Below are positions 11,889-57,332 of a stretch of DNA of 60,050 bases, in pieces. The translations under genes and the position numbers were made by a program. The stretch comes from an uncultured Campylobacterales bacterium (GTDB lineage Bacteria > Campylobacterota > Campylobacteria > Campylobacterales > JAADDG01). The first letter of the stretch is position 1. Each line of letters starts with the position of its first letter. The notes beneath the pieces are model-generated. The model was not told where the DNA came from and ran no database searches. It saw only the letters and a list, made by a program, of their open reading frames with translations. The DNA is taken from positions 1 through 60,050 of the forward strand of contig CAYVDJ010000118.1 in the NCBI GenBank assembly GCA_964450755.1, given 5' to 3'.

Positions 11889-12185
11889 ATGGTAGCATAT
11901 TCTCAGGATGAATTAGTTTCATCAACAGATATATCAAAACAATTTGGTTATTATCTTTCAAATGTATCAAATGGTGTTGTTGAAAAATTGGCAATTTTGA
12001 AAAATAATAAAATTGAAGCAGTGATGATACCAACAGCAATGTATGAAAGCTTAATGGACATGCTAGATGAAAGAGAAAATATAGAAATTTTAGAAACTAT
12101 CGAAAAAAGATTAAAAACACCGAAAGAAAACTATCTTGATGGTAATAAAGTTTTAAAAGAATTAAATTTATCTTTAGATGACTAA
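11889..12185 (+). CDS. type II antitoxin, Phd/YefM-like
   Basis: 98 aa. The N-terminal pattern ISKQFGYYLSNVSNG..EKLAILKNNKIEAVMIPTAMYESLMD matches the Phd/YefM fold consensus. The stop overlaps the toxin start (ATGA-type junction at 12185). Confidence 0.6.
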   Translation: MVAYSQDELVSSTDISKQFGYYLSNVSNGVVEKLAILKNNKIEAVMIPTAMYESLMDMLDERENIEILETIEKRLKTPKENYLDGNKVLKELNLSLDD

Positions 12186-12481
12186 TGTATAATTTTAAAT
12201 TTCATCCAGATGCTTATGAAGAATTACAAAAGCTAAATAAATCTATCCAAATTCTATTTACAAAAAAACTAAAACAGATTTTAAATTCACCAGAAATTGG
12301 AATTAAACTAGGAAATAAAAATAATCTAAATTTAGCAGGATTTAAAAAAGTGTATTTTAACAATAAAAAATATAGGATAGTTTATGGAATCATTGAAGAA
12401 GAAATTATAATTTATATTATAGCAATAGGAAAAAGAGAAGAAATGGATGTTTATAAAAAAGCTGTCAGCAGAAAAAAATAA
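12185..12481 (+). CDS. type II toxin, RelE/ParE superfamily
   Basis: 98 aa. FHPDAYEELQKL...KKVYFNNKKYRIVYGIIEEEIIIYIIAIGKREEMDVYKKA has the typical RelE/ParE layout. It is translationally coupled to the upstream antitoxin. Confidence 0.65.
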   Translation: MYNFKFHPDAYEELQKLNKSIQILFTKKLKQILNSPEIGIKLGNKNNLNLAGFKKVYFNNKKYRIVYGIIEEEIIIYIIAIGKREEMDVYKKAVSRKK

Positions 12482-30155: not shown

Positions 30156-32093
30156 CTATTTTAACATCCATCGTTGATTGCTTCTTCCATGACACGGCCA
30201 TGTGATTAGTTTGGCACCAGGAGATGAATTTGATTTGGCTATATCTATGCAATAATTATTTAAGCGAGATTTTAATTCTCCGTTATCATAATACCACTGT
30301 TGATTACTTTTCCCATGACACGGCCATGTAATAAGCTGTGCTCCCGCTGATGAATCTGCACCGGAAATATCTATACAGTATCCGTTTAAAGCAGATCTAA
30401 TCTGTCCGTTGTCATAATACCACTGTTGATTGCTTTTCCCATGACACGGCCATGTGATAAGCTGCGCTCCTGCCGATGAATCTGCACCGGAAATATCTAT
30501 ACAGTATCCGTTCATTTTGGAGACAATCATTTTAAAATTGTCAAAGACGGGAGGATTGGGAGAAGGAGACGGAGGAGTATAATCATCAATAACCGTTAAA
30601 GTAAAACTGTCTTGAGAAGATAAATCATCATTATCGGTTACAGTCAGTTTTATCTCAAACTTTCCTACTGAATCAGGAGTAATTTTCAACTTTTTTTCAT
30701 ACCCTAAAATATAATTATCCACGCTCCATTGATATTGCACAATATATCCGTCAAGATCCATGCTATTTGACCCGTCAAGGATAACACTTTGTCCTATTTT
30801 TATCTGTTTGTCACTTCCTGCATCAGCAACAGGAGGCTCTTTTACACTTTTTAGAGGTACTATAACAGTAACCTGTTCAAGATACAAAGGATTATAACAT
30901 CTGTTTCTATCTTTTTCCCATCCTGTTTTGACACAGAAATAGTCATTGTTATCATAAATATCATCTATATATTTATATGCAACGGCAGAATGAAAGAAAT
31001 TTTGTGACAAAATAACGATACTTGCCAAAATCGGTCTGTTGGAATATATTTCCCTCATAAGTGTCATCCATGCACTGAAAGGATCTTCTCTCACAGCGAT
31101 ATAGGCATAAGATTCAGGATATCCCCTCTCTTCCACATAATGAATTCCCTGCGCCATATTTGAACGGGGAGTTGCTCCACTATCATCGCTATCGCAAAAT
31201 GTACCCAGATATTCTCTCAATCTTTCGATCATGTACCTTACATCCGGATCAGATGTATTTATATTGTCATTATCATAAGCACTTCCTACCATTTTCGGAA
31301 ATCCGTTTCTATCCCAATATTCTAAAAGTATAGCCCATGCTACAGGAGAACATCCCGCAACGCAATATCCGTTGTTTGACCAGTTTCTATACTCTTGGTA
31401 AAAATCGCTGAAATTATACCTTCCCATATTTTTTGTATTTCTCTTTTTCTCAACAGACTTTATCGATTTTACTTTAATATCTTTAAAAAGATCTTCCCCT
31501 TTTCCTTTTAGCAATTTCTCTTTTAATTTTACATTCTCTTTGATAAACTTTAAACTTCTTCTTTTTTGATTATTTTGAAAGTATTTTACTTCTTTACACT
31601 CTTTTAACGGAGAAAAAACAAACCACCCATTCTCTTTGGAAACACCGTTTAAAAAACCGATCTCTTTATCTACCTTAAATCCAATCCCATAACATACAGG
31701 AAGAGCTATGAAAAATCTACTCTCAAGGACTTTAATACCCGCTTGTTTGAAATTTTTTCTTAACTTTTTCTCATAAGACAAGAGGTTTGCGCTTATAGAT
31801 TTGCCATTTTCCAAAACAATTGGAATCAAAGGAGTATTTTTATCATTGCTTATAAAAAAACCTCCGCTCTCATTTTCCAAAGATACTTCATATCCAACAA
31901 TATTTCCCTCAATATCATAAAATTTTTCGATATTAGATATATTGGCTTCTCTCCATTCCTTAAAAATATTTTCCTGCACTCTTTTTTTGTAATTTTGTGC
32001 TATCAAAGTAGCTTCATCAAACTTTATGAAATCCTTTCCGTTTAAAAAACCTGCAATTAATACCAATATCCAGATAATTCTGCCCATCATCAC
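30156..32093 (-). CDS. secreted multidomain protein: pro-region, papain-fold (C10/streptopain-like) cysteine peptidase, PKD domain, Pro-rich linker, ricin-B (beta-trefoil) lectin
   Basis: Signal peptide. Candidate catalytic Cys in GYCVAGCSPVAWAILLEYW and His in FFHSAVAYKY, with KTGWEKD. PKD-like ADAGSDKQIKIGQSVILDGSNS...IKLTVTDNDDLSSQDSFTLTV. Linker PPSPSPNPP. Three units of YCIDI...GA.LITWPCHG.SNQ.W (QxW). Confidence 0.6.
   Translation of the reverse strand: MMMGRIIWILVLIAGFLNGKDFIKFDEATLIAQNYKKRVQENIFKEWREANISNIEKFYDIEGNIVGYEVSLENESGGFFISNDKNTPLIPIVLENGKSISANLLSYEKKLRKNFKQAGIKVLESRFFIALPVCYGIGFKVDKEIGFLNGVSKENGWFVFSPLKECKEVKYFQNNQKRRSLKFIKENVKLKEKLLKGKGEDLFKDIKVKSIKSVEKKRNTKNMGRYNFSDFYQEYRNWSNNGYCVAGCSPVAWAILLEYWDRNGFPKMVGSAYDNDNINTSDPDVRYMIERLREYLGTFCDSDDSGATPRSNMAQGIHYVEERGYPESYAYIAVREDPFSAWMTLMREIYSNRPILASIVILSQNFFHSAVAYKYIDDIYDNNDYFCVKTGWEKDRNRCYNPLYLEQVTVIVPLKSVKEPPVADAGSDKQIKIGQSVILDGSNSMDLDGYIVQYQWSVDNYILGYEKKLKITPDSVGKFEIKLTVTDNDDLSSQDSFTLTVIDDYTPPSPSPNPPVFDNFKMIVSKMNGYCIDISGADSSAGAQLITWPCHGKSNQQWYYDNGQIRSALNGYCIDISGADSSAGAQLITWPCHGKSNQQWYYDNGELKSRLNNYCIDIAKSNSSPGAKLITWPCHGRSNQRWMLK
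30160..30535. repeat. three tandem 126-nt (42-codon) units encoding the ricin beta-trefoil; two units are nearly identical at DNA level
   Basis: The unit starting at 30286 and the unit starting at 30412 differ at only a handful of positions over about 100 nt. The third unit (30160-30285) is clearly more diverged. Confidence 0.75.
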
Positions 32094-38130: not shown

Positions 38131-39795
38131 TTATCTCTCTTCATAAAAACCTATATCGGGAGATTTTCCTTTAAAACGGTGATTTTTTTCAACAGCAATT
38201 CCGGCATCAATACACGGTGAAGATGATTTTAAATGCAGATCTCTTTTTTTGACATCCATAAACTCAGGATCTTTTTGAATATTATTTGATATTTTATCTA
38301 CTTTATTTATTTTATTAAATTCTTTGACAGTTAAAAACTTTCCTTTGTAAAAGATGATTTTTCTGCTTGTTGAGCCGTTATAAATACAGTTATTTAAAAA
38401 AGTGTTGTTTTTTACAGATTTGTGATTATCTATAACCAATCCCATTCCATCCAATTTGTCTTTTGAATTGATACCGCAGTTATATATGATATTGTTTCTT
38501 ACAAAATTGTTATATTTGTCATTTTCACCGGCTCTTATCCTTATACCGGCCTCTTCGCAATCTATGATTACATTGTTATCAATGGTATTGTCATGACTTA
38601 CATAATTTTTCCCATACCCCTGTATCTCTATACCCTGAGCCGTTCCGTAAGGTTTGATGGGAGAGTTTTTAACCGTATCAATGATATTGTGATGAAAACG
38701 GTTATGATCTCCGTTTAACTGACTTCTTACGGTCGTATTTTTGATAATGTTATAAAAAAACTCGTTATGATGCGCTCTGTTTTCCACTCCGTCTATTCCT
38801 ATGCCTCTTGAGTAGGATAGATTTTCACCTGTTATATAATTACTGTAAAATTTATTGTTATAAACTCCGGGATTTTGTCTGTTTAGGGCTACAATGTTTA
38901 TGCCGGTATGTCCCCAGTCTTTTATACGGTTGTTTCTGACGATACAGTCATGCGCTCCGCTGTTTAATAAAATTCCGTCTATTGATCCTCTTGTGGAGGG
39001 AGCTTTATAGCCTTTGAAATGAAATTTGGAATCAACAAGACAGTTTTCTACGATAACATCATGAGAAGGAACAAATCTGCTCTCTTCTTTGTTATCCATG
39101 ATTTGAAGTCCCATTCGCGAATAACCGCCTATAGTGCAGTTCTTGACAACTATATCATGTGAACCTCTTATCGCCAATGCATAACCGTTTCCGCCTTGAA
39201 TATCAAGATTTTGAAAAATAATATTATGTTTGTCTTTTACCAAAACGGTCTCATAGCGGATATTTATCTTTATAGAGTTACAGCCAAAAGCCGGATTTTG
39301 TTCACTGTACACATAGAGTTTATTGTTATTCCAAAACCATTTTATCTTCCTGCCGTCAATCTCCAAAGGCATTTTTCCTGCTCTTAGAACCTCTTTGTCA
39401 TCGATTAAAATTCTTTGGGGATTAAAATTGAGATTGAATGACCAGATATTTTTACCATCTACATTTTCCCAGTTTTCAGGGATTTTACTGCCCGGCAACT
39501 CCTTCATTGAAGTTATAACGGGTAAATCTCCCTTTCCGTAAGAGGTAAAAACTATGGGTTTGTTTTTGTTTCCTGATGAAGATACGATAAAATAACCTCT
39601 AAAAACAGAACCTCTTTTAAAAGATATCGTATCACCGGGCTTAAATCTGAATCCGTTAAGTTTTTTTATGCTTTTCCATGCGCTTTTGGGAGATTTCCCG
39701 GAAGAGAAATCGTTTCCATTCTCAGCATCAAGATAATAGATATCCGCATTTGAAAAAGTTATAAAAACAAAAAAAAGTATCCAAAATTTTGTCAT
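38131..39795 (-). CDS. secreted right-handed parallel beta-helix repeat protein (pectate-lyase fold, polysaccharide lyase/hydrolase-like)
   Basis: Signal peptide. The N-terminus YYLDAENGNDFSSGKSPKSAWKSIKK is typical of this fold. Many periodic NN.I/N..I.N turns are present (VVKNCTIGG, IVENCLV, IVRNNRI, NNIIDT, NNVIIDC, NNIIYNC). Confidence 0.7.
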   Translation of the reverse strand: MTKFWILFFVFITFSNADIYYLDAENGNDFSSGKSPKSAWKSIKKLNGFRFKPGDTISFKRGSVFRGYFIVSSSGNKNKPIVFTSYGKGDLPVITSMKELPGSKIPENWENVDGKNIWSFNLNFNPQRILIDDKEVLRAGKMPLEIDGRKIKWFWNNNKLYVYSEQNPAFGCNSIKINIRYETVLVKDKHNIIFQNLDIQGGNGYALAIRGSHDIVVKNCTIGGYSRMGLQIMDNKEESRFVPSHDVIVENCLVDSKFHFKGYKAPSTRGSIDGILLNSGAHDCIVRNNRIKDWGHTGINIVALNRQNPGVYNNKFYSNYITGENLSYSRGIGIDGVENRAHHNEFFYNIIKNTTVRSQLNGDHNRFHHNIIDTVKNSPIKPYGTAQGIEIQGYGKNYVSHDNTIDNNVIIDCEEAGIRIRAGENDKYNNFVRNNIIYNCGINSKDKLDGMGLVIDNHKSVKNNTFLNNCIYNGSTSRKIIFYKGKFLTVKEFNKINKVDKISNNIQKDPEFMDVKKRDLHLKSSSPCIDAGIAVEKNHRFKGKSPDIGFYEER

Positions 39796-39798
39796 AAT

Positions 39799-41190
39799 CT
39801 ACTTACTCTTATTAAACAGTATATATAATTTTACCAAAGCGGGGATTAAACCTGCATTATAGCTGATAGAGACTTCATTTGCTATATAATCATCTCTTTT
39901 GTCTTCATAATCAAAATCATCCAGACTCTTAGGTCCTCCCACCATGGCACCTGTTAATTCATAAGTGTTGTTTTTTGGAACATCTATATCATCTGTTTTT
40001 GAATGATGAGCGTTTGCATGATGGGGATTTTTCGGAAAATTTCTGCCAAATCCTATCAGATAACTGCTCTGTCTTGGATTTTTACCCAAAATATAATCTA
40101 TCTGACTTTTTGCAAAACTGATATATTCTTGTTTTTTACTCTCTGAGGGAACAAAATCTGCATAAACAAGAGCAGTAAAAGCCAAATTTGCAGCATACTG
40201 AAGGGAACCCCATTTATCTGCAAATACCAATCCTCCTTTGGTTCTTTTTTCTTTATGTATCCAGTGATTTAGATGCTGTTGCACCAAATTGTGATAGAGA
40301 GGTTTATCTGTCAAAATCGCCAAAAGCAAAAAGACACTGTTTTGCATATCTCCCCAGTTTAACGGCCAATAGATATCATCTTTGTCCAGCTTGGATGCAA
40401 AATTCACGGCATCCAAAAGATATTTTTTCTCTTTTGTGGCAATATAGAGCCATAGCGCACTATAAGAGAGTTCATCAATATATCCCGAAGAGTCATAAGC
40501 TCCTTTTGCCATCTTGTAACCGCTGTTTCCCTGAAAAGTTTTTGAAAAGAGATAAAGCCTTTTTGCCCTTGTCAAAAGTGTATCGGCATAATCTTTGTCA
40601 CTGTTTTTAAAAACAAGATATCCTATCGCCAAAGCCGCCGCCGTTTGCGCACTTACTTCACTGCAAGGAGAGGAGGAAGTACAGTAAAATGAACTTCTTT
40701 GATAGTTGATATCTTCCGCGCTCATCCAGTATTTGTGATCGATTGCAGGATCACCCACCTGATAGAAAAAAATATCATCTTTTATATTTTTTTTGATTTT
40801 ATATGCTTTTAGAAAATAGTCCAAAACATATTTGAGATTGCTTTTTGCATAATCATAGAGTTTCAGTTCCTTAAAAGCCTCCGGAGAGAGGAGAATACTC
40901 CATCCCGTCATTGAAGCGCTGTATGCCATCGGCAAACCAAACTTCACATAGTCTCCGGCATCATACCATCCGCCGCTTAGATCGACTCCGTTATCTTTAC
41001 CGTCATCCAAAGCGGAGGATTTTGGCCAGTTTAATTTGTATATATATTTATCTGTCTCTTTTTTACCGGATCTTTGGGCTTCATAAAAAAGAAACGATTT
41101 TTTTAAGGCATCACCGTAATCAAAATCTTTTGCCATTGCACCTGTTGAGATCAAAATCAAAGATAAAAAAAACAGAGATATCTTTTTCAA
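39799..41190 (-). CDS. glycoside hydrolase family 9 enzyme (endoglucanase / glucosaminidase-like), secreted
   Basis: Signal peptide. GH9 signatures DLSGGWYDAGDYVKFGLPMAYS, NPHH..AHH and the C-terminal DDYIANEVSISYNAGL. Confidence 0.85.
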   Translation of the reverse strand: MKKISLFFLSLILISTGAMAKDFDYGDALKKSFLFYEAQRSGKKETDKYIYKLNWPKSSALDDGKDNGVDLSGGWYDAGDYVKFGLPMAYSASMTGWSILLSPEAFKELKLYDYAKSNLKYVLDYFLKAYKIKKNIKDDIFFYQVGDPAIDHKYWMSAEDINYQRSSFYCTSSSPCSEVSAQTAAALAIGYLVFKNSDKDYADTLLTRAKRLYLFSKTFQGNSGYKMAKGAYDSSGYIDELSYSALWLYIATKEKKYLLDAVNFASKLDKDDIYWPLNWGDMQNSVFLLLAILTDKPLYHNLVQQHLNHWIHKEKRTKGGLVFADKWGSLQYAANLAFTALVYADFVPSESKKQEYISFAKSQIDYILGKNPRQSSYLIGFGRNFPKNPHHANAHHSKTDDIDVPKNNTYELTGAMVGGPKSLDDFDYEDKRDDYIANEVSISYNAGLIPALVKLYILFNKSK

Positions 41191-47104: not shown

Positions 47105-50100
47105 ATGAGAATAATATTTTATATTTTGTTTATTTTAAATTCTATTTTTGGCTCTGTTTACACCGTTACCAAAAGTTCAGATACCAACGACGGTATCTGC
47201 GACAAAGACTGCTCTTTGAGAGAGGCTGTTGTAGCTGCAAACAAACATGAGGGATTTGATGTGATAAAAATTCCCGCAGGAGAATACAGACTCACTATAA
47301 AAGGTCTAAAAGAGCTTTACGGAGAAAAAGGCGATCTCAATATCAATGATGATCTCTATATCATGGGAGACGGAAAAGATAAAACCGTTATCACGGGAAC
47401 AAAAGATGACAGGGTATTTTATATAGATACCTTTTCAAAGGGAAAGAGGGTCAAACTCTTTGGTCTTACTGTCAGAAATGGCAAAAGCGATTACGGCGGC
47501 GGTATATTGAGCAATGGAGATTTGACACTTGAAAATGTCAAAATCACAGACAACGAGGCAAACAACGGCGGCGGCATACTGAGTTCATCCTCATTAACTA
47601 TCCAAAACTGCGATATTTTAAACAACAGTGCAAGAACCACCGGTGAGTTAAGTAACGGCTTTGGAGGCGGAGTGTTTGCAAAAAATCTCATCATTATCAA
47701 AAACTCCATTTTAAACAACAACTTTTCAGACAGAGACGGAGGAGCGATTTACGCCAAAACAGACAGCAATCTGACGATAGAACAATCCTCTTTTATCCAA
47801 AATACAAGCTCTTCCAACGGAGGAGCGATCTTCACAAATGCCAAAGCACTCATAACAGATACGGTTTTTGAAAAAAACGAGGCAAATGACGGTGGAGCGA
47901 TAGCCGATCACCAAAAGGCAGATATTACGATTAATAACGGCAGATTTTTACAAAATCATGCAAAAGGGGAAGACCTCGGCGGTGGAGGAGCGCTTTTTAA
48001 TTATCAAGGAACCATAACGATAGACAGATCTCTGTTTGATGCAAACAGTGCGCTTGGAGAGGGTGGCGGAGCTATCGAAAATACCGGAACTTTGCATCTT
48101 TTTAACTCTATTTTGAGAAACAATGAAGCTCTTTTTCACAGCAGCTCTTCACTGCCTGACAATACAAGCTACGGTTTTGGAGGAGCGATGCTGCTCATAA
48201 AAGGATCTTCCAATATACTTGAAAATATAAGATTTACAAACAATACCGCCAATATAAGCGGAGGTGCGATCTATAATGATGTAGAATCAGACTTAACGAT
48301 AGAAGATTCTTCGTTTATCCAAAATGAAGCTTTAAACAAATATGGAGGAGCCATAATAAACGAAGGCTTTTTAAATATCAAAAGATCCCTCATCTCACAA
48401 AACAAAGCAAAACTTTTGGGAGGCGGAATCTCTACAAGCACGGCAGAAGCCACACTCACAGATACAACCATACAGGATAACAACAGCTCCAAAAACGGGG
48501 GAGGATTATACAACTCGCCAAAATCAAAACAGATGAATTTATACAACTGCAAAATTTTATCAAACAATGCCAAAGAGTATGGAGGAGGAGTACTTAACCA
48601 ATCAAAACTCTATATGATCTTTTGCAATCTTGAAAAAAACTACGCTGTCAAAAGCGGTGGAGCCATCTATAATGATATGGAGAGTTTTATCGATATAAAC
48701 AGCTCTCTCATCTCTCAAAACAGCGTCGATACAAACGGAGGAGGGATATGGAATCTAGGTACCATTTTCCTAAAACAGAGTCAAATCACCGATAACAAAG
48801 CCTCACAAATCGGAGGAGGTATCGTAAATTCAAGAGGAAAATTAACTCTGATACAATCTACTCTCTCCAAAAACAGCGCCCAAAGCGGAGGAGCATTTGG
48901 CAACTATCACGGAGCTGTTTTAAATATAGAAGACTCTACGATAAATTCCAACTATGCGATAAACGGCTACGGAGGAGGAGTCATAAACTCCCAAAGTACG
49001 CTAAATATCAAAAATTCAACGATTACTCTAAACAGTGCCAATTTGGGAGGAGCTGTCTCAAACAATGACAAAGATGCAAATATAACTCTCACTCATGTAA
49101 CGATTGCTCTAAATTCAGCCACCCAAAACACAGGCGCTCTTTTAAATTATCAGGGAAATATAGATATAACAAACAGTCTGATAGAGGGAAAGTGTAACAA
49201 TCAAGGAGAGATAAACTCTTTTGGAGGAAATATCGAATCTCCCTCAAATACATGCTCTTTGAATAACACAGATGATCTGTACGAAATATCCGAACTTCTT
49301 TTAAAAGGGCTTGAAAACAACGGAGGTTACACCAAAACAATGGCTCTTGATGAACAAAGTATCGCACTAAACAGGGCAAAAGAGTCTTACTGCCTCTCTG
49401 CGGACGAGAGAGGAGAAAAGCGTATGGAGTGCGATAGCGGAGCTTTTGAGATGACGGGGGATTTATCAAAACTCTCTCTTTTTATGAGCTACTCTTTGAA
49501 AAACGATGCAGACAAAAACGGAAAAATAAGTAAAAATGATACCGTTCACTATCAGGTAACAATCAAAAATATTTCAAACCAAAATGCCAGAAATGTTGTC
49601 TTTGAAAATCCCATCATCGAGGGTTCAACTATTCTGACAGACAGCATAAAAAGTGATGAAGGAGAGACGGAGGATAAAGATTTTTTCGTAAAAGTCAGAT
49701 TTTCAAAACTTACTCCTTCCAAAGAGGTTACAATCTCTTTTGATACGACAATCGATAAAAGAGATGAGGGAAATATAACAAATCAAGCGATACTTTCAGC
49801 CTCAAATGCCCCCAAAATCGATTTTTCCTTGAATATTCCCGTCTTTAGAGGCGATCCTTTGGAAGCTTTTATAGAGCGTTTTTATAAAAATATCCTCTCA
49901 AGAGAAGCGGACAAAGAGGGACTTAACTACTGGGTATCGACTCTGAAAAGCCGCTGCGCATCTTTTGTGGCGCTTGGATTTTTCAACTCAAAAGAGTTTA
50001 CGGACAAAGGGTTGAACAATGAGGAGTTTGTAAAGATACTTTATAAAACCCTGTTTGACAGAGAAGCTGACGGGGAGGGGTTGAGTCATTGGGTTTTTAT

Positions 50101-50563
50101 GTTGGAAAACGGCAAAACAAAAGAGGATGTGATGAGAGGTTTTTTTGCGGCAAAAGAGTTTAAAGATTTGACAGAAAAGTTCAATGTAAAAGATATAGAA
50201 AATGAAGCCCAAAAAGGGGGAATAGAGGGATTTATATCAAGATTTTACACTCTTGTTTTAGGAAGAGGAGTTGATAAAAGCGGTCTTGCCTACTGGATAG
50301 ATCAGATAAAAAGTTCCCAAAAAACACCCGCACAAGCAGCAATCGGTTTTTTTGCAAGTAAGGAGTACAGCGACAGACATCAAACCGACGAAGAGTTTAT
50401 AGATACACTCTATCACACCTTTTTTGACAGAAAAGCCGACGAAGGCGGTCAGGCATACTGGAGTAAAAAGTTAAAAGAGGGAGAAACAAGACTCGATATC
50501 GTAAAAGAATTTACATATACCAAAGAGTTTGGGGATATCGTGGAGAGTTTTGATATAACTTAA
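47105..50563 (+). CDS. large secreted protein: CSLREA-motif head, long Pmp-like (GGAI/GGGI) parallel beta-helix, DUF11-like Ig domain, four DUF4214-like units
   Basis: Signal peptide, then DGICDKDCSLREAVVAAN. There are more than 20 turns containing GGGI/GGAIYN/GGGVxN with NSA/NxA spacing. KNDTVHYQVTIKNISNQNARNVV resembles a conserved-repeat domain. C-terminus FIERFYKNILSREADKEGLNYW ... FIDTLYHTFFDRKADEGGQAYW. Confidence 0.75.
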   Translation: MRIIFYILFILNSIFGSVYTVTKSSDTNDGICDKDCSLREAVVAANKHEGFDVIKIPAGEYRLTIKGLKELYGEKGDLNINDDLYIMGDGKDKTVITGTKDDRVFYIDTFSKGKRVKLFGLTVRNGKSDYGGGILSNGDLTLENVKITDNEANNGGGILSSSSLTIQNCDILNNSARTTGELSNGFGGGVFAKNLIIIKNSILNNNFSDRDGGAIYAKTDSNLTIEQSSFIQNTSSSNGGAIFTNAKALITDTVFEKNEANDGGAIADHQKADITINNGRFLQNHAKGEDLGGGGALFNYQGTITIDRSLFDANSALGEGGGAIENTGTLHLFNSILRNNEALFHSSSSLPDNTSYGFGGAMLLIKGSSNILENIRFTNNTANISGGAIYNDVESDLTIEDSSFIQNEALNKYGGAIINEGFLNIKRSLISQNKAKLLGGGISTSTAEATLTDTTIQDNNSSKNGGGLYNSPKSKQMNLYNCKILSNNAKEYGGGVLNQSKLYMIFCNLEKNYAVKSGGAIYNDMESFIDINSSLISQNSVDTNGGGIWNLGTIFLKQSQITDNKASQIGGGIVNSRGKLTLIQSTLSKNSAQSGGAFGNYHGAVLNIEDSTINSNYAINGYGGGVINSQSTLNIKNSTITLNSANLGGAVSNNDKDANITLTHVTIALNSATQNTGALLNYQGNIDITNSLIEGKCNNQGEINSFGGNIESPSNTCSLNNTDDLYEISELLLKGLENNGGYTKTMALDEQSIALNRAKESYCLSADERGEKRMECDSGAFEMTGDLSKLSLFMSYSLKNDADKNGKISKNDTVHYQVTIKNISNQNARNVVFENPIIEGSTILTDSIKSDEGETEDKDFFVKVRFSKLTPSKEVTISFDTTIDKRDEGNITNQAILSASNAPKIDFSLNIPVFRGDPLEAFIERFYKNILSREADKEGLNYWVSTLKSRCASFVALGFFNSKEFTDKGLNNEEFVKILYKTLFDREADGEGLSHWVFMLENGKTKEDVMRGFFAAKEFKDLTEKFNVKDIENEAQKGGIEGFISRFYTLVLGRGVDKSGLAYWIDQIKSSQKTPAQAAIGFFASKEYSDRHQTDEEFIDTLYHTFFDRKADEGGQAYWSKKLKEGETRLDIVKEFTYTKEFGDIVESFDIT

Positions 50564-50592
50564 CCGATTTTAACACTCCTGTTTCAATCATT

Positions 50593-50624
50593 AAAAAAAT
50601 TGGCACGGCTTTGGCCGTGCTTTT
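50593..50624. terminator. bidirectional rho-independent terminator
   Basis: AAAAAAATTG-GCACGGC-TTTG-GCCGTGC-TTTT, between the convergent 1152-aa gene and yqeY. Confidence 0.7.
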
Positions 50625-50627
50625 ATA

Positions 50628-51074
50628 TCAAGACAACATCTCTTTGACGATGGTATTAATCCTTCTTCCCTCAGCGGCACCGGCTGTTTTTTTGATAACT
50701 GCTCCCATGACTTTTCCCATATCTTTCATGGAAGAGGCACCTGTATCTTCTATGACACTTTTTACTATCTCTTTTAGCTCTTCATCATCCAACTGTTTTG
50801 GCAGATAGGATTTCAAAAATTCAGCTTCTTTTGTCTCTTTTTCATAGAGATCTTCTCTTTGCGCCTCTTTGTACTGTTTTGCGGCATCTTCTCTTTGTTT
50901 TACAGATTTTTGGATAAGCTTTTGGATATCTTCATCGCTTAACTCTCTTCTTTCATCAACTTCCACCTGTTTAAGCGCACTCATCAAAAAACGGATCACA
51001 TCTCTTTTAAAAATATCTTTGGCTTTCATGGCCTCTTTTAGATCATTTTTCAACTGTTCTTTTAAATTACTCAT
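50628..51074 (-). CDS. yqeY: GatB/YqeY domain protein
   Basis: MSNLKEQLKNDLKEAMKAKD..KRDVIRFLMSALKQ...MGKVMGAV is the typical YqeY layout. 148 aa. Confidence 0.85.
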   Translation of the reverse strand: MSNLKEQLKNDLKEAMKAKDIFKRDVIRFLMSALKQVEVDERRELSDEDIQKLIQKSVKQREDAAKQYKEAQREDLYEKETKEAEFLKSYLPKQLDDEELKEIVKSVIEDTGASSMKDMGKVMGAVIKKTAGAAEGRRINTIVKEMLS

Positions 51075-51087
51075 TTTTTCTCCCTTT

Positions 51088-51104
51088 TGGAACTTTATTT
51101 GCTT
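51088..51104 (+). promoter_or_regulatory. sigma54 (RpoN) -24/-12 promoter upstream of flgH
   Basis: TGGAACTTTATTTGCTT. GG at 51089-51090 and GC at 51101-51102 give exact spacing and a near-perfect match to the Campylobacter/Helicobacter GGAAC-N6-TTGCTT form. Confidence 0.65.
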
Positions 51105-51140
51105 GTAATTTTATTACAATTGACTTTAAACGGAGTAAAA

Positions 51141-51857
51141 ATGAAAAAACTTTTTTCAATTATAATGATAAATTCCATGATATTTCTCTTTCTGGGTTGT
51201 TCCGTGCATCCTGTTGATCCCGTGATCGATATGAAACCTCCAAAGTATGTAGAACAGATTCCTCCCCGCATAAACAATAAAATACTCAATAACGAGGGAA
51301 GCCTTTTTGGCAAAGGAGACAACCCTCTCTTTTCTGACAGAACAGCCATGCACATAAACGATATCGTAACGGTTGTTATCAATGAAAATATCGCCCAGTC
51401 CTCCACCGGCAAGAAGAAACTGCAAAAAAACAACAACAACCAGTTGGGAGGCGGTTTGATGACTCCAAATTCCGGTGGTATAGCAAGTTCCATAGCAAAT
51501 ACAATCAACAGCGCTGCAAATATCGGCTTTAAAAGCAATTCAAGCAATATTTTTTCATCTTCGGGAGTTAATACCAGAAACGAAAAATTCACTACAACAA
51601 TAACTGCAAGAGTTATCAAGATACTTGGTAACGGAAACTATTTTATCGCAGGAAGCAGAGAACTTTTGGTAAACGGCAACAAACAGATCATCAAATTAAG
51701 CGGAGTCATAAGACCCTACGATATAGATCAAAAAAATACGATAGATTCAAAATATATAGCCGATGCGAAGATTTTATATCAGACAGAGGGAGATATCGAC
51801 GCTTCCACCACAAAACCATGGGGAGCGAAATTTATAGAAGCTGTTTCACCTTTTTAA
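51141..51857 (+). CDS. flgH: flagellar L-ring lipoprotein FlgH
   Basis: Lipobox MKKLFSIIMINSMIFLFLGCS. Also LFSDRTAMHINDIVTVVINE and LSGVIRPYDIDQKNTIDSKYIADAKI. ATG at 51141 with SD GGAG is preferred over the track TTG at 51087, which lies inside the promoter. Confidence 0.9.
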   Translation: MKKLFSIIMINSMIFLFLGCSVHPVDPVIDMKPPKYVEQIPPRINNKILNNEGSLFGKGDNPLFSDRTAMHINDIVTVVINENIAQSSTGKKKLQKNNNNQLGGGLMTPNSGGIASSIANTINSAANIGFKSNSSNIFSSSGVNTRNEKFTTTITARVIKILGNGNYFIAGSRELLVNGNKQIIKLSGVIRPYDIDQKNTIDSKYIADAKILYQTEGDIDASTTKPWGAKFIEAVSPF

Positions 51858-51886
51858 AAGCGGTGCAAAATACACCGCTTTTTTTA
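51856..51886. terminator. bidirectional terminator between flgH and hpf
   Basis: AAAAGCGGTG-CAAAATA-CACCGCTTTTTTT. It overlaps both stop codons. Confidence 0.65.
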
Positions 51887-52417
51887 ATATAAACCGTATT
51901 TGTTATCGCCTCTTTTGTAAAGAACGCGAAGTTTGTTGTCAGTATCGTTGAAAACCAGAAATTGTCTGCTGTCACTTTTTAAAATCTCCAAAGCCTCTTC
52001 TATATCCAAAGGTTTATAGAGATCCAACTCCATAGGGATTATCTCATCCACTTCATTATCAAAAGATTGTACAGAGAGTGTACCTTCTGTTAAAACTTCA
52101 GGTTTTACATGTTTTTTATCTTTTATCTTGTCATGATGTCTTCTTAGAACTTTTTTGGCTCTTTCAACTGCCAAATCGATAGCGGCATAAACATCTTTGT
52201 CTTTTTGTCTGATAACAACACTGTTTTTTTGCGGAAGATGGATAGTAAATTCTATACTGTATCCTTTTTTCCCGTTTTTTTCATCGGCAGATACTATAAC
52301 TTTGGTAGATATAATATCAAGATTATATTTTTTCAAAGACTCTACGGCACTTTCTATATAAGATTTGATAGAATCGGTAAGTTCAAACTGTCTTCCGACT
52401 AAACTTAAGTTCATCAT
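51884..52417 (-). CDS. hpf: ribosome hibernation promoting factor (long form)
   Basis: MNLSLVGRQFELTDSIKSYIE... followed by a C-terminal dimerisation domain (PLDIEEALEILKSDSRQFLVFNDTDNKLRVLYKR.DNKYGL). Confidence 0.9.
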   Translation of the reverse strand: MMNLSLVGRQFELTDSIKSYIESAVESLKKYNLDIISTKVIVSADEKNGKKGYSIEFTIHLPQKNSVVIRQKDKDVYAAIDLAVERAKKVLRRHHDKIKDKKHVKPEVLTEGTLSVQSFDNEVDEIIPMELDLYKPLDIEEALEILKSDSRQFLVFNDTDNKLRVLYKRGDNKYGLY

Positions 52418-52499
52418 ATATCCTTTCGGTTTGATTTTATATACATAAATATATCAAAAATTCTCTTAAAATGTTGTTATGAAAAAACCTGAAGCCTTT

Positions 52500-54635
52500 C
52501 TATCTGGTAATATTATAAGAAGAGGCTATGTTGGAAAACTCTTTTGAATCTATAAATTCTTCTATCAAATCGTTGTGGGTCATATCATTTTTCAGTTTGT
52601 CTTCCCAGTATGAACGACCCTGTTTTTCGGGTTCTCTGTTCAATAAAGTTCTGTATGCAACATCTATAAACGATTTGTCATCAAGATTTTTGTTTAAAAA
52701 TTCCGGAGAATTAAAAAAATCTTTTGCTATATCTGAAGCGCTTTTTACTTTTTCTCTCAGTTTTTCCACCCAGTACTCTTTTCCCTGCGGATCAATCTCC
52801 CTTTTTAGAACAAATGAGTAAAATCTCTCTACAAATGCCTCCAACTGATCATCTCTGTCAAAAGGGGTGATTTTATAGTGTTCTTCGCACAGTTGTTTAA
52901 ATTCATCGGAAAATATCACACTGTTGAAAAGCTCGACTCTTGGAACATCTTTGTTCTGTATCTGATCAAGCCAATAAGCAAGTCCCTGGGGTTCTACATC
53001 TCTGTTTAAAAGAGCTTTGTAAATGCTTTTTATAAAATCCTCATCACTGATATCACTCTTTTTTATTTCATCACTGTTCAAAAAGAAAAATTTTGCCACA
53101 TAAGCGGCTGTTTTTCCGTTTTTCAGCTGATTTACCCAATAGTCAAAACCCTCTTTGTCATAATCTCTTTGGAAGAGGTATTTATAAAGCGTCCATATAT
53201 ATTCATCTTTTGGCTCTTCAAAAGTCGGAGGAGCGGTTTCGTTATTATCTCCCTGTGCAGCCAGAACAGCTTTGTAGGCATTGACTCTTCCATATCCGTA
53301 GTGATCGTTTCTGCCGTTGATATAGGACATATTTCCTATTTTATCGGCACTTTTTTCCAGGATTTCTATCACCTCTTTGGCACTCAGATTTGGATTTGCA
53401 CCAAAAACCAAAGCCGCTACTCCGGCAACGATGGGAGCTGAAGCGGAAGTACCGGCAAAATCAAAAGTATAGTTGTATCCGTTATAGCCTTTTGCTCCTG
53501 TTACATCTGTTGTAACTATCGTTCCGTATTCGGATCCCGGAGCCAAGATATCCAGACTTTTGCCAAAATTGCTGTAACTTGTTACAAGATCCTCTTCGCT
53601 TGAAGCACCGACTGAAAGAACATAGGGAGATTCGGATTCATCCTGATAGTACGGAGAGTCAAGATTGTATCCGTCATTGCCGGAGGCAAATATGATCAAA
53701 ACGCCTTTGCCTCCCCTCCCTTTAGTATAAAGATTTTTAAAAGTTCTGTTGAGGGCATCATCAAGACTGTATGTTCCCCAACTGTTTGAGATAACACTCA
53801 CCCCCTGCGAATCCAGCCAGTTAAATGCTTTTATGCTGTCGGAGATATAAGGTCCGTCTTTTACCGCATAAAGTTTTGCTTTGGGTGCAACACCCACACT
53901 CCCTTTTGAGTTTTCAGCCGCCACTATCAGTCCAGAACAAGAAGTTCCGTGCCAGTCGCCGTTATAATCCCCCGCCTGTGCCGTAGGAGATGGGTCATCC
54001 GTACCGTAATCGGCATAGTTTTTGTATCCTGCGATATTTTGCTTTAAATCTTCGTGATTTATATCTATCGCATCATCTATGATACCTACTTTTACCCCTT
54101 CACCTTTTGTAATCTTCCATGCATCTTCCACTTTGATATCGGCATCTCTTTTATATAAAACTCCATTCTTTTCACCACCTTTGTTTTTCAAATGCCATGC
54201 TGAAGAAAAGAGAGGGTCAAGGGTTCTTTTTCTTTTTTGTTTGATAAAATCAGGATGAGAGAAATCAACACCTTTTATTTTATATATTTCGTTTGATATA
54301 TCAAGAGTTTTCATTCTGTCGGGAGTTTGAAAAACATAGATATTATTACCAAGCTCTTCTATCATTTTCAGATGATATCTGTTTAAAAGAGTCTCTTTTA
54401 AACTCTCATCTTTTAAACCTACTATTATTCGGTTGGAGATACCTACCAAATCATTGTTTTGTGTTCTGTAGTATATCGCTTTTATATTTTTTGCGTTTTT
54501 TGGTATAAAGTTTTTTACTTCATATCTTGAAAATTTAGCTATCAGAGGCTGTTTATGACCGCCACTGTAGTAAAAAAGCTCTTGGGAAAAAACCGAAGAT
54601 ATCACGAAGAACATCAAGAGCAATATTTTTTTCAT
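52500..54635 (-). CDS. secreted S8 subtilisin-like serine peptidase with four C-terminal DUF4214-like units
   Basis: Signal peptide. Catalytic triad contexts VGIIDDAID (Asp), DWHGTSCSG (His) and AGTSASAPIVAG (Ser). C-terminus IWTLYKYLFQRDYDKEGFDYW ... FIDVAYRTLLNREPEKQGRSYW. Confidence 0.85.
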   Translation of the reverse strand: MKKILLLMFFVISSVFSQELFYYSGGHKQPLIAKFSRYEVKNFIPKNAKNIKAIYYRTQNNDLVGISNRIIVGLKDESLKETLLNRYHLKMIEELGNNIYVFQTPDRMKTLDISNEIYKIKGVDFSHPDFIKQKRKRTLDPLFSSAWHLKNKGGEKNGVLYKRDADIKVEDAWKITKGEGVKVGIIDDAIDINHEDLKQNIAGYKNYADYGTDDPSPTAQAGDYNGDWHGTSCSGLIVAAENSKGSVGVAPKAKLYAVKDGPYISDSIKAFNWLDSQGVSVISNSWGTYSLDDALNRTFKNLYTKGRGGKGVLIIFASGNDGYNLDSPYYQDESESPYVLSVGASSEEDLVTSYSNFGKSLDILAPGSEYGTIVTTDVTGAKGYNGYNYTFDFAGTSASAPIVAGVAALVFGANPNLSAKEVIEILEKSADKIGNMSYINGRNDHYGYGRVNAYKAVLAAQGDNNETAPPTFEEPKDEYIWTLYKYLFQRDYDKEGFDYWVNQLKNGKTAAYVAKFFFLNSDEIKKSDISDEDFIKSIYKALLNRDVEPQGLAYWLDQIQNKDVPRVELFNSVIFSDEFKQLCEEHYKITPFDRDDQLEAFVERFYSFVLKREIDPQGKEYWVEKLREKVKSASDIAKDFFNSPEFLNKNLDDKSFIDVAYRTLLNREPEKQGRSYWEDKLKNDMTHNDLIEEFIDSKEFSNIASSYNITR

Positions 54636-54748
54636 AAAATAATCCTTTTTATCTTAAAATAATTTTTACCGGATAGATTGTAATATAATATATCGTAATT
54701 AATATAAAAGTTTAATAAAATGAAAATTATTTTATCATTTGAGGAAAA

Positions 54749-54776
54749 GTGGCAAATAAGATTACTTATTTGCCAC
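54749..54776 (-). terminator. rho-independent terminator overlapping the stop codon of the LVIVD-repeat gene
   Basis: GTGGCAAATAAG-ATTA-CTTATTTGCCAC, a perfect 12-bp stem. The stop codon lies in the loop, and TTTT follows on the minus strand. Confidence 0.6.
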
Positions 54777-57332
54777 TCCGTATTCATAAGAAAGGTTTTG
54801 AAATTCTTCTGAAGATACAAATTCTTTTACCATATCAAGTCTGCCGTGAGTTTTCAAAAAATCTCTCCAATAGCTTTTGCCGCCCTCATCAGCTTCCCTG
54901 TCCATCAATGCCCTGTAGGCAATATCTATAAATTCCGCATCCGATAGATGTCTGTCTATAAATTCTTTGGAGCCGAAAAATTCCATCGCGATATCCTGAG
55001 CCGTTTTTTCACCGCTTTTTAATTTTCCTGCCCAAAAATTGACTCCTTCAAGATCGGCATTTCTGTCAAGAACCAAAAGATACATTCTGTTTAAAAAGGC
55101 TCTGAGAGCATCATCTTTTGAATAAGCTTTAATATTATATTTTAAAGCCAAACTTTTAAATTCATCAGACATAATAAATTTATAAAAAATGATATCTCTT
55201 GGAATCCCTTTGTCATCAATCATCGATTTCCAGTATAAAAGTCCCTCGTTATCGGCTGTTCTGTCCAAAAGAGTTTCATAAGTTCTTTGCAAAAACTCAT
55301 CTGTTGAGAGGTGAAATCCTCTAAACTCGGCACTTTGAAAGAAAACTTCCGCCACCGACGCTGCACTGTCGTCATTTAAGAGTCTTTGCAGATAATAGTT
55401 CAATCCCTCCTCATCATAGTCTCTTTTCAAAAGTTTTGTATAGAGTCTTTTTATAAAATCTTCTATCTGTTTGGCAAAACTCATCTTGTATATATCTATC
55501 CCGTAACCGTCATCACAACTGATGATATAATCTCTAATAACACTTACATCTTCTACGCTTTTGTTTGCGGCAAAATGTTTAAAAAGAGATGGATGCTCTT
55601 TGTCGGAAATATCAACTATCGCAAAACCGAAATCTTTATATGCCAAATAGGCATAACTGTTTTTTACATCGACTCCCGTGGCATGATCCGCCGAAGTGCT
55701 GCTGTTTAGATCAAACACTGAACTGAGTTTTGGATCGTTTGGATTTTTGGTATCTACTATCTGCAAACCTATCGAAAAATTTGCGATATAGGTATAATCC
55801 CCGCTGTTTACGACATCCATCGCATAACCGCTTGTGTCTGTATCATAAGTTCCTGTTTTTACCGGATTTTTTGGATCTGAAATATCTATCACACAAAGAG
55901 TATCATTATAGTCAGCCAGATAGGCATAGTTGTCTTTGACATAAACGCCCATCGCATAGGCTTCTGTGGGAGTGTTTGCTGTGATTGACGGATTTTTGGG
56001 ATCTTTTATATCCACTGTCTGCAAACCTTTGGATCTGTCTGCGATATAGACATAGTCTCCTTTCACTTTGACATCATAAGCTCTTCCCTCTGTTATGAGA
56101 GTCGAGATCATTTTGGGATTTTGTTTATCCGAGATATCAACTATATGAAGTCCCTGACAAAAGTCTGTTATATAGACATACTTCTCATCTTTACTGACAT
56201 CTATTGATTCGGCTATACATCCAAGCTCAATATTTCCTGTTACTTTCAAAGAGGAGGTATCGGAAAAATCAACGATATCCAAACCGCCGTAAACATCTGC
56301 GATATAGATGGTATCTCCCTTTGCCACCGCTTTTTTGGGATGAAAAACGCACTCATGTGAACCTGCTCTTTTTGCATGAAATTTATCGCTCACATCTATA
56401 ACCTGAATACCCGTATCTTTATTGGCTATATAGACAAGATCTCCCTCTCTTGCCATTGCTACTGCTTCGCCCAACTGTTTGTATTCCGAAGCCAGATGAA
56501 TATTGTCGGGTGTTATAACATTTGCTACTTTAAGACCTGTTGTTTTATCCAGGATATAAGAGGTTTTGCCGTCACTTGAAATATCTATATCCATCGCATG
56601 ACAGTAATGACTAGGTCCGTCACAGTCAAAAAGCAAAGAGGGATTGGAAGGATCGCTTATATCTATCACTCTAAATCCGGCCGCTCCATAGGAGATATAG
56701 GCTTCATTATTGACAACAGCTATTTTGTCAGCGGTTGAGTTTGACTCATAACTTCCTATCTCTGTTATAGCTCCGGAATGGGCTATCTGCAAAACAACCA
56801 GACCGTTCTCACCGTCTGCAATATAAGCTTTGTCATCTCTTACCTTGACATCTTCACTGACTCCCGATGTTGTAAAAGATGTTACAACATTGGGCGAAGT
56901 TTTGTCATATATATCGATAACTTTCAATCCCTCACCGTCAACAGCATAGATATAGCTCTCTTTTACATCCATCCCTTTTATCTCTTTGTCCGAAGCCAAA
57001 AAGGATAACTGCTTAGGAGAGGTGATATCTGATACATCCCATATATAAAGTCCCTTTTTGCCTCCTATATACAAAGTTTTTCCGTCGCTGTAGATAGAAT
57101 TAACTTCATCATTTAAAGAAAAAACACTTTTTTGCTTCATATCTTTTGGATCTGAAGCATCAAAGACCACTATTCCCCTGTTGGAAGCGCCGTAAACTAT
57201 ATGATTTTTTACCGCAACTTCATAAAAAGACTCATTTAAAGTCCCTACTTTCTGCACTTTAAAGTCTTCTGCAAAAAGGTTTGAGAAAAGAAGAAATAAT
57301 ATTAAATATAAAATATTATTTAACTTATACAT
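54762..57332 (-). CDS. secreted LVIVD-repeat beta-propeller protein with four C-terminal DUF4214-like units
   Basis: Signal peptide. About 13 repeats of the type G(L/F)x(V/I)(V/I)D(I/V)SDPxxP (GFRVIDISDPSNPSL, GLHIVDISDKQNPKM, GLQTVDIKDPKNPSI ...). C-terminus FIKRLYTKLLKRDYDEEGLNYY ... FIDIAYRALMDREADEGGKSYW. Confidence 0.8.
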   Translation of the reverse strand: MYKLNNILYLILFLLFSNLFAEDFKVQKVGTLNESFYEVAVKNHIVYGASNRGIVVFDASDPKDMKQKSVFSLNDEVNSIYSDGKTLYIGGKKGLYIWDVSDITSPKQLSFLASDKEIKGMDVKESYIYAVDGEGLKVIDIYDKTSPNVVTSFTTSGVSEDVKVRDDKAYIADGENGLVVLQIAHSGAITEIGSYESNSTADKIAVVNNEAYISYGAAGFRVIDISDPSNPSLLFDCDGPSHYCHAMDIDISSDGKTSYILDKTTGLKVANVITPDNIHLASEYKQLGEAVAMAREGDLVYIANKDTGIQVIDVSDKFHAKRAGSHECVFHPKKAVAKGDTIYIADVYGGLDIVDFSDTSSLKVTGNIELGCIAESIDVSKDEKYVYITDFCQGLHIVDISDKQNPKMISTLITEGRAYDVKVKGDYVYIADRSKGLQTVDIKDPKNPSITANTPTEAYAMGVYVKDNYAYLADYNDTLCVIDISDPKNPVKTGTYDTDTSGYAMDVVNSGDYTYIANFSIGLQIVDTKNPNDPKLSSVFDLNSSTSADHATGVDVKNSYAYLAYKDFGFAIVDISDKEHPSLFKHFAANKSVEDVSVIRDYIISCDDGYGIDIYKMSFAKQIEDFIKRLYTKLLKRDYDEEGLNYYLQRLLNDDSAASVAEVFFQSAEFRGFHLSTDEFLQRTYETLLDRTADNEGLLYWKSMIDDKGIPRDIIFYKFIMSDEFKSLALKYNIKAYSKDDALRAFLNRMYLLVLDRNADLEGVNFWAGKLKSGEKTAQDIAMEFFGSKEFIDRHLSDAEFIDIAYRALMDREADEGGKSYWRDFLKTHGRLDMVKEFVSSEEFQNLSYEYGVANK

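Follow-up and report, generated by a model that had tools for sequence, protein, structure and literature searches.

The question raised by this locus is why four proteins with unrelated N-terminal parts should all end in the same array of helical domains, and what that array does for them. The window, the whole stretch of 60,050 nucleotides analysed here (contig CAYVDJ010000118.1 of assembly GCA_964450755.1), comes from an uncultured Campylobacterales bacterium. The four genes encode a beta-helix protein, an S8 subtilase, a LVIVD beta-propeller protein and a protein with a Gly/Ser-rich region and an fn3-like domain (GS/FN3 protein), each of which carries a C-terminal module of tandem DUF4214 domains. 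There is about an even chance, judged from comparative sequence evidence, that this module serves as a non-covalent envelope-retention module on its four passengers.

The original prediction, made without database searches, had proposed four open reading frames (ORFs) sharing one C-terminal module and had likened that module to Pfam DUF4214. Both points were borne out by ORF calls and profile searches. All four proteins scored above the gathering score of PF13946 (23.2 bits), with E-values between 6.8e-46 and 2.8e-64, and a hidden Markov model (HMM) built from the four tails and run over a six-frame translation of the window matched these four ORFs alone, at 352-383 bits. Module boundaries were set by hmmsearch. 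While the tail is indeed shared, its length had been put at 210-220 residues and is ~234 residues in each protein. As read from the sequences, the four proteins stop 0-5 residues past the final DUF4214 helix. The GS/FN3 protein gave five Pfam DUF4214 stretches (E 2.8e-64, 213.6 bits) because it carries a third, degenerate pair of units in addition to two well-conserved ones. Pairwise identity among the four modules was only 34-41%, and they are therefore old paralogues and not recent copies. Across the four modules, first and second pairs were all diverged to a similar degree (31-48%), and apart from the repeated pair there is no sign that the four-unit block is a fixed unit. The modules are acidic, with isoelectric points (pI) of 4.7-5.2 and net charges of -8 to -13, and 15% of their residues are F, W or Y.

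The identical order of two alternating units, A and B, that had been predicted for the four proteins is present as an alternation but is trivial, since A and B together form one domain that occurs twice, and the GS/FN3 protein has a third pair. According to structure prediction and profile comparison, one A+B pair is a single all-helical domain of ~115 residues with the phycobilisome-linker (PF00427) fold, and the module is two tandem copies of it, which accounts for the fixed unit order. A single pair aligned with PF00427 positions ~4-115 of 126. Against the PF00427 cut-off of 28.7 bits, the full-length GS/FN3 protein scored 36.5 bits, followed by the S8 and LVIVD proteins with 22.7 and 20.1 bits, respectively, while the beta-helix protein gave no match. 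When a profile of 13 modules was compared with solved structures, CpcN was the best match (2.9e-12); all significant matches were phycobilisome linker or rod/core proteins, and each spanned one pair. The AlphaFold2 (AF2) model of the LVIVD module (predicted local distance difference test, pLDDT, 94.9; predicted template-modelling score, pTM, 0.88) contained 16 helices, eight per pair, and all 50 of the 50 matches listed by Foldseek for this model against the PDB were phycobilisome entries. The single-domain matches 3OSJ, 2KY4, 3PRU, 3NPH and 3OHW placed one A+B pair on a phycobilisome-linker domain over ~115 aligned columns, with a probability of 1.00 and target-normalised template-modelling (TM) scores of 0.55-0.64. 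No phycobiliprotein genes were present among the ORFs of the window.

The passengers proved as unrelated as originally described, with Pfam and NCBIfam assigning them to a beta-helix, an S8 protease, a LVIVD propeller and a weakly matching fn3 domain. The beta-helix protein scored above the NCBIfam cut-offs for choice-of-anchor Q and CSLREA, the LVIVD protein scored below the cut-off for choice-of-anchor B, and in the S8 sequence HGTSCSG and GTSASAP were recognised by eye as conserved His and Ser motifs, respectively. The cleavable-looking signal peptides of the prediction were found again as signal-like N-termini in all four proteins (MRIIFYILFILNSIFG/S, MKKILLLMFFVISSVFS/Q, MYKLNNILYLILFLLFSNLFA/E and MRKILLSSILCAFLVSSSNA/D); these calls, like the survey of representative proteins below, come from a crude hydrophobicity heuristic. 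The reported absence of an autotransporter barrel, RTX repeats or a sorting motif also held. In the four proteins, Pfam (E <= 0.01) identified no autotransporter, RTX, SLH, CWB2 or LysM domain and no tail of the type IX secretion system (T9SS), and neither Pfam nor NCBIfam reported a T9SS, PEP-CTERM, LPXTG or PGF-CTERM sorting domain or motif. RTX nonapeptide repeats (PF00353) did not match any of the four, and no trio of ABC, HlyD and outer-membrane factor (OMF) genes adjoins their genes. Despite its PMP repeats, the beta-helix protein has no autotransporter C-terminal beta-barrel at the same Pfam threshold and ends in DUF4214.

The family to which the module belongs is very large. A profile search of 1.84 billion representative proteins returned 37,170 clusters (50% identity level) at E <= 1e-3 and 4,112 at E <= 1e-30, and a word-match search with the module alone returned 3 proteins. 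Among GTDB representative genomes, the full module occurred in many gut and rumen Clostridia, in Methylomonas and Halomonas and in two metagenome-assembled genomes (MAGs) of Campylobacterota, with 41% identity in the best match. In the fetched loci, at least 16 ORFs of one Saccharofermentans MAG bear the module. Among named relatives, 'Epsilonproteobacteria bacterium' MAGs are the closest. An identical beta-helix protein (P0274) is encoded on ENA contig ERZ27262694:k141_158012, where gene order matches the window over ~23 kb, and the GS/FN3 orthologue P0023 (590 residues) carries a module that is 75% identical. No recorded protein has exactly the S8 sequence. The window modules were 54-75% identical to modules of orthologous passengers in related Campylobacterota and 33-45% identical between paralogues; compared with the 34-41% among the four, the orthologue values indicate that all four fusions are old and vertically inherited.

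Of 145 representative proteins with an initial Met, 115 had a signal-like N-terminus. All four window proteins carry the module C-terminally, as do 97 of the 150 best representatives and 91 of the 126 ORFs of the fetched loci, while the module stands N-terminally, straight after the signal peptide, in P0157, L025, L001 and the CotH protein of locus L085. The number of pairs in the wider family ranges from 2 to >6. Related genomes contribute further DUF4214 members with S8, beta-helix and CotH passengers. Locus L085 (GCA_054037355.1, 1-19318) has three DUF4214 proteins within 23 kb, namely an S8 protein of 1236 residues, a beta-helix orthologue and a protein in which N-terminal DUF4214 precedes CotH and two lamin-tail domains; next to them are genes for YkuD/PG_binding_1 and an M15 peptidase.

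The retention reading follows from three independent comparative lines: the equivalence of the slot that the module occupies, the portfolio of its passengers and its genomic context. Full-length LVIVD homologues of Campylobacterota end in DUF4214, in the same slot that is filled elsewhere by three CWB2 repeats (P0185), SLH (P0199, P0229), PGF-CTERM (P0161) and a T9SS tail or FlgD_ig (P0164, P0183 and P0158). DUF4214-tailed homologues of the beta-helix protein are common in other Proteobacteria, and further homologues have RTX, T9SS or dockerin tails. The term 'choice-of-anchor', in the paper on choice-of-anchor A, denotes passengers of surface proteins that use interchangeable anchors. The portfolio was surveyed in 57 of the closest module-bearing proteins. 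Passengers included BspA-LRR (8), Big_2 (5), choline-binding repeats (4), YkuD (3) and Phage_lysozyme2 (2), as well as Amidase_3, M23, GH25, a VgrG3-like C-terminal domain, SH3_3, CAP and transglutaminase. A mix of autolysin and adhesin passengers is typical of Gram-positive cell-wall-binding modules. On small Sulfitobacter and Roseovarius plasmids, 4-5 DUF4214/RTX proteins are encoded inside loci for rhamnose, 3-deoxy-D-manno-oct-2-ulosonic acid (Kdo), Kps-type ABC transporters and glycosyltransferases. This polysaccharide-locus context of Roseobacteraceae matches the account given for Gammaproteobacteria in a preprint on Psh (PP_1794), an RTX-DUF4214 protein of P. putida that acts at the cell surface (bioRxiv 10.64898/2026.09.02.748959).

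Under the retention reading, the Sec pathway would export each of the four proteins. The C-terminal array of two or three helical domains of ~115 residues would have no catalytic role; it would bind a cell-envelope polymer and so keep the passenger on the producing cell, and its tandem copies would add avidity. The ligand would most likely be a surface polysaccharide such as the O-antigen of lipopolysaccharide (LPS) or the capsule, or else peptidoglycan if the proteins stay periplasmic. Starting from the observed domain identity, fold, position, variable copy number and comparative pattern, we infer the binding itself, its ligand and the final location of the proteins.

Several points weigh against this reading. 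The acidity of the modules (pI 4.7-5.2) is awkward for anionic LPS without cation bridges, and it sets the DUF4214 modules apart from familiar wall-binding modules that are basic. Both FlgH and FlgI are encoded in the window, and the organism therefore has two membranes; in a double-membrane cell, a Sec signal alone takes a protein to the periplasm. The window encodes no route by which the proteins would cross the outer membrane to the surface, and the four genes do not adjoin polysaccharide genes. To our knowledge, protein-protein contact inside phycobiliprotein rings is the only function known for the phycobilisome-linker fold. No binding experiment or demonstrated ligand is known for any DUF4214 domain, and docking and gene neighbourhood are all that is offered for O-antigen binding by Psh (bioRxiv 10.64898/2026.09.02.748959).

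The fold also lends itself to a different reading, in which the domains would plug into a ring or lattice protein (an S-layer, a scaffold or each other) and assemble the four passengers in the manner of cohesin-dockerin pairs or phycobilisome linkers. All relatives with solved structures are phycobilisome linker domains, and these serve protein-protein contact; the modules are acidic and rich in aromatic residues, and the LVIVD and S8 genes form a conserved pair with the module on both products. We nevertheless regard such docking as unlikely. No candidate partner gene is conserved beside the module genes in the window or in loci L080-L086, the portfolio consists mostly of peptidoglycan enzymes and adhesins and is a better match to wall binding, and the Roseobacteraceae plasmids place the module in a context of polysaccharide synthesis.

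A periplasmic tether, with proteins that never cross the outer membrane and a module that holds them on the sacculus, seems less likely still. The four proteins have a Sec signal only, with no autotransporter barrel, RTX repeats or type I secretion system (T1SS) signal, T9SS tail or lipobox found with Pfam and NCBIfam. Clostridia fuse the module to domains that act on peptidoglycan, namely YkuD, Amidase_3, M23 and GH25, and the peptidase and YkuD genes near the DUF4214 genes of L085 point the same way. Homologues of the passengers in other phyla are, however, sent to the surface via T9SS, PGF-CTERM, SLH or CWB2. Moreover, RTX-DUF4214 proteins exit by T1SS with no periplasmic stage, and Serratia spent medium contains DUF4214 proteins.

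That the module has no targeting role at all, being a generic stabilising, spacer or solubility domain spread by domain shuffling, is improbable. The size and diversity of the family (37,170 clusters) and the lack of a known ligand would suit such a domain, but the module shows strong enrichment on exported proteins, takes the place of proven anchors and has long been kept in its fusions, as the module identities between orthologous passengers, set against those between paralogues, show.

An export or sorting signal read by a dedicated outer-membrane translocation or processing system, comparable to the T9SS C-terminal domain (CTD) or PEP-CTERM and with the S8 protein as processing enzyme, would agree with the prevailing C-terminal position and with the slot shared with T9SS and PGF-CTERM tails in LVIVD homologues, but is highly improbable given the N-terminal cases, the copy number of 2 to >6 pairs, the abundance of the module in single-membrane Clostridia, the separate T1SS signal that handles export of RTX-DUF4214 proteins, the lack of a conserved motif at the junction and C-terminus of the four window proteins, and a well-folded length of 234 residues, unlike the short sorting signals generally known. 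The original prediction had offered a common anchor, a partner-binding module or an export tag; retention or partner binding is the best reading of the comparative evidence, and the export tag is disfavoured. Its suggestion of a small system of four also found no footing, as the genes lie dispersed amid housekeeping genes and none dedicated to secretion or processing is close to them. As read from the sequences, no motif is common to the junctions or the C-termini, which argues against sortase-like processing and hence against the subtilase as a dedicated processor.

Two further candidate links were rejected. The first was homology to the O-antigen-binding N-terminal domain of the Caulobacter S-layer protein RsaA (RsaA_NTD, PF19198), which we retain as a lead only; three methods placed the same DUF4214 unit on RsaA residues ~58-112, none of them significantly. 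The four modules gave no match to RsaA_NTD at E <= 10, and comparison with the 6T72 sequence gave hhalign probabilities of 1.4% and 0.3% and an hmmsearch score of 2.1 bits. The one sub-threshold RsaA_NTD match (23.4 versus 27 bits) lies over a DUF4214 unit of a CAP-RTX-DUF4214 protein of Sulfitobacter (L087:21119-23215). The second candidate was a link to phage endolysins. A tblastn search of the module against 50,697 phage records returned no matches, and a library of viral structures yielded only unannotated 'DUF4214' proteins of phages and giant viruses; thus, these sources provide no endolysin-type evidence for wall binding.

Table 1. Positions of the four genes, their DUF4214 modules and further features in the window (aa, amino acid residues; nt, nucleotides).
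Feature	Position	Strand	Description
Beta-helix protein gene	47105..50563	+	1152 aa, Sec-type; ORF call and Pfam/NCBIfam domains: CSLREA aa 19-46, PMP repeats, choice-of-anchor Q aa 732-783, DUF11 aa 805-901, then DUF4214 module
Module of beta-helix protein	49859..50560	+	aa 919-1152; Pfam DUF4214 x4, E 5.6e-52, 174.1 bits
S8 subtilase gene	52500..54635	-	711 aa, Sec-type; catalytic domain aa 178-449 (nt 53289-54104)
Module of S8 protein	52503..53207	-	aa 477-711; Pfam DUF4214 x4, E 1.6e-47, 159.9 bits
LVIVD beta-propeller gene	54762..57332	-	856 aa, Sec-type; ORF call and Pfam
Module of LVIVD protein	54765..55466	-	aa 623-856; Pfam DUF4214 x4, E 6.8e-46, 154.7 bits
GS/FN3 protein gene	21657..23450	-	597 aa, Sec-type; Gly/Ser-rich region, fn3-like aa 147-225 (weak), three DUF4214 pairs
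Module of GS/FN3 protein	21660..22364	-	aa 363-597; two well-conserved pairs; 355 bits to module HMM
Extra degenerate DUF4214 pair of GS/FN3 protein	22392..22727	-	aa 242-353; 33.6 bits, i-Evalue 8.3e-10 to first half of module HMM
Gly/Ser tandem repeat of GS/FN3 gene	23173..23354		coding; periods 66/78 nt, ~2 copies, 91-92% matches
Inverted repeat	54735..54775	-	over LVIVD stop codon
Toxin-antitoxin pair	11889..12481	+	Phd/YefM-like antitoxin (weak match) and ParE toxin
Exported protein gene	30156..32093	-	weak Peptidase_C10, PKD domain, C-terminal ricin-B lectin domain
GH9 glycoside hydrolase and right-handed beta-helix genes	38131..41190	-	adjacent genes; GH9 protein with signal peptide, E 1.3e-127

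The neighbours of the four genes (Table 1) are housekeeping genes, among them rpiB, apt, trpB, yqeY, flgH, hpf and corA, and the GS/FN3 gene lies ~24 kb from the other three. The S8 gene follows immediately downstream of the LVIVD gene in the same orientation, after a gap of 126 nt. In related Campylobacterota, the pair of LVIVD-DUF4214 followed by S8-DUF4214 is kept in loci L080-L083 at 53-57% identity. The flanks of the pair differ between L080 and L081-L083, and the downstream ORF of L084 is truncated and unannotated. No S8 neighbour occurs beside the distant LVIVD-DUF4214 protein P0156 (29% identity; L090). In L081, the pair lies a few kb from sugar-nucleotide genes. L081, L086 and L090 all come from ENA sample ERZ27262694, along with the strain of the window itself, and this sample also holds at least one related Campylobacterota population with its own LVIVD/S8-DUF4214 pair, plus a distant LVIVD-DUF4214 paralogue.

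Promoter-like sites over 52.3-57.6 kb occurred at chance level (17 versus 17.9 expected), and the terminator-like matches over the same range were all located within coding regions. An inverted repeat, GGCAAATAAG...CTTATTTGCC, covers the stop codon of the LVIVD gene and is followed by a short T-rich stretch, as read by eye. The hairpin may weakly terminate or attenuate transcription before it reaches the S8 gene. The tandem repeat in the Gly/Ser region of the GS/FN3 gene could differ in length among strains.

Elsewhere in the window, another exported protein combines a weak Peptidase_C10 match with a PKD domain and ends in a binding domain of another kind, a ricin-B lectin domain. The gene for a signal-peptide-bearing GH9 glycoside hydrolase stands beside a right-handed beta-helix gene; this pair is unexpected for Campylobacterota and may perhaps be tied to a beta-glucan exopolymer. 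A type II toxin-antitoxin pair, made up of a weakly matching Phd/YefM-like antitoxin and a ParE toxin, is encoded amid housekeeping genes.

Extended beyond the window, the retention reading would make tandem DUF4214 a general glycan-binding envelope anchor in single- and double-membrane bacteria. Here it would tether a small Sec-dependent surface proteome, including the LVIVD/S8 pair, to LPS or capsule. The domain would possibly be distant kin of the RsaA N-terminal domain, and the phycobilisome linkers would then be a cytoplasmic offshoot of an ancient anchoring fold. This extension is doubtful as a whole, and we put it forward tentatively.

Among known systems, the phycobilisome linkers (PF00427; 3OSJ, 2KY4, 3PRU and 3NPH) have the same fold as the A+B pair, but they are cytoplasmic and sit inside phycobiliprotein rings, whereas the domains of the window are found on Sec-type proteins. 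SLH, CWB2, choline-binding repeats and the RsaA N-terminal domain resemble the DUF4214 array in being non-catalytic tandem-repeat modules that occupy one terminus of exported proteins. On LVIVD homologues the identical slot is filled by SLH and CWB2, and four representative proteins combine choline-binding repeats with DUF4214. The folds and sequences of these modules are, however, unrelated to DUF4214, they have no Pfam match in the window proteins, and their binding is proven.

Psh and the Roseobacteraceae proteins share with the window the DUF4214 x4 array on an exported protein and, as a group, an association with surface-polysaccharide loci. They differ in having RTX repeats, no Sec signal and an adjacent T1SS, while the proteins of the window carry Sec signals and lack both RTX repeats and a neighbouring T1SS, and module identity between the two sets is only 27-33%. 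On the Sulfitobacter plasmid NZ_CP081122.1 (L087), DUF4214 and RTX repeats occurred together in 4 of the 5 proteins scanned, and on the Roseovarius plasmid NZ_CP045413.1 (L088) a T1SS adaptor gene lies near the DUF4214 proteins.

The closest likeness in overall pattern is to the segmented filamentous bacteria (SFB), for which 19 secreted Cluster.1 proteins with four C-terminal regions matching Pfam DUF4214 were described in 2012 (Pamp et al. 2012, PMC3371716). DUF4214 in SFB is now called a likely surface-anchoring domain (PMC12780176), and SFB, which are without the usual wall-binding domains, have DUF4214 tails instead (PMC12780176, PMC3371716). The window set fits the SFB-type definition (PMC3371716), comprising several predicted secreted proteins with unrelated N-termini and four C-terminal DUF4214 regions. 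In SFB there are likewise many predicted secreted proteins per genome, the predicted helical fold resembles the phycobilisome linker 2KY4, and one member carries an fn3 domain. In contrast, SFB are single-membrane Clostridia while the window organism has two membranes, the beta-helix, S8 and LVIVD passengers differ from those of SFB, and 4 proteins in 60 kb compare with 19 in SFB Cluster.1 alone. If the array is an envelope anchor, very many 'hypothetical' exported proteins would gain a predicted location, including SFB T-cell antigens and the phage-shielding Psh. The window alone reveals no new kind of system, and its pattern is already known from SFB (2012). New here are the lineage and the envelope type, and the window presents a compact set in a double-membrane bacterium, with the module on plain Sec substrates, four passengers and a conserved propeller-protease pair.

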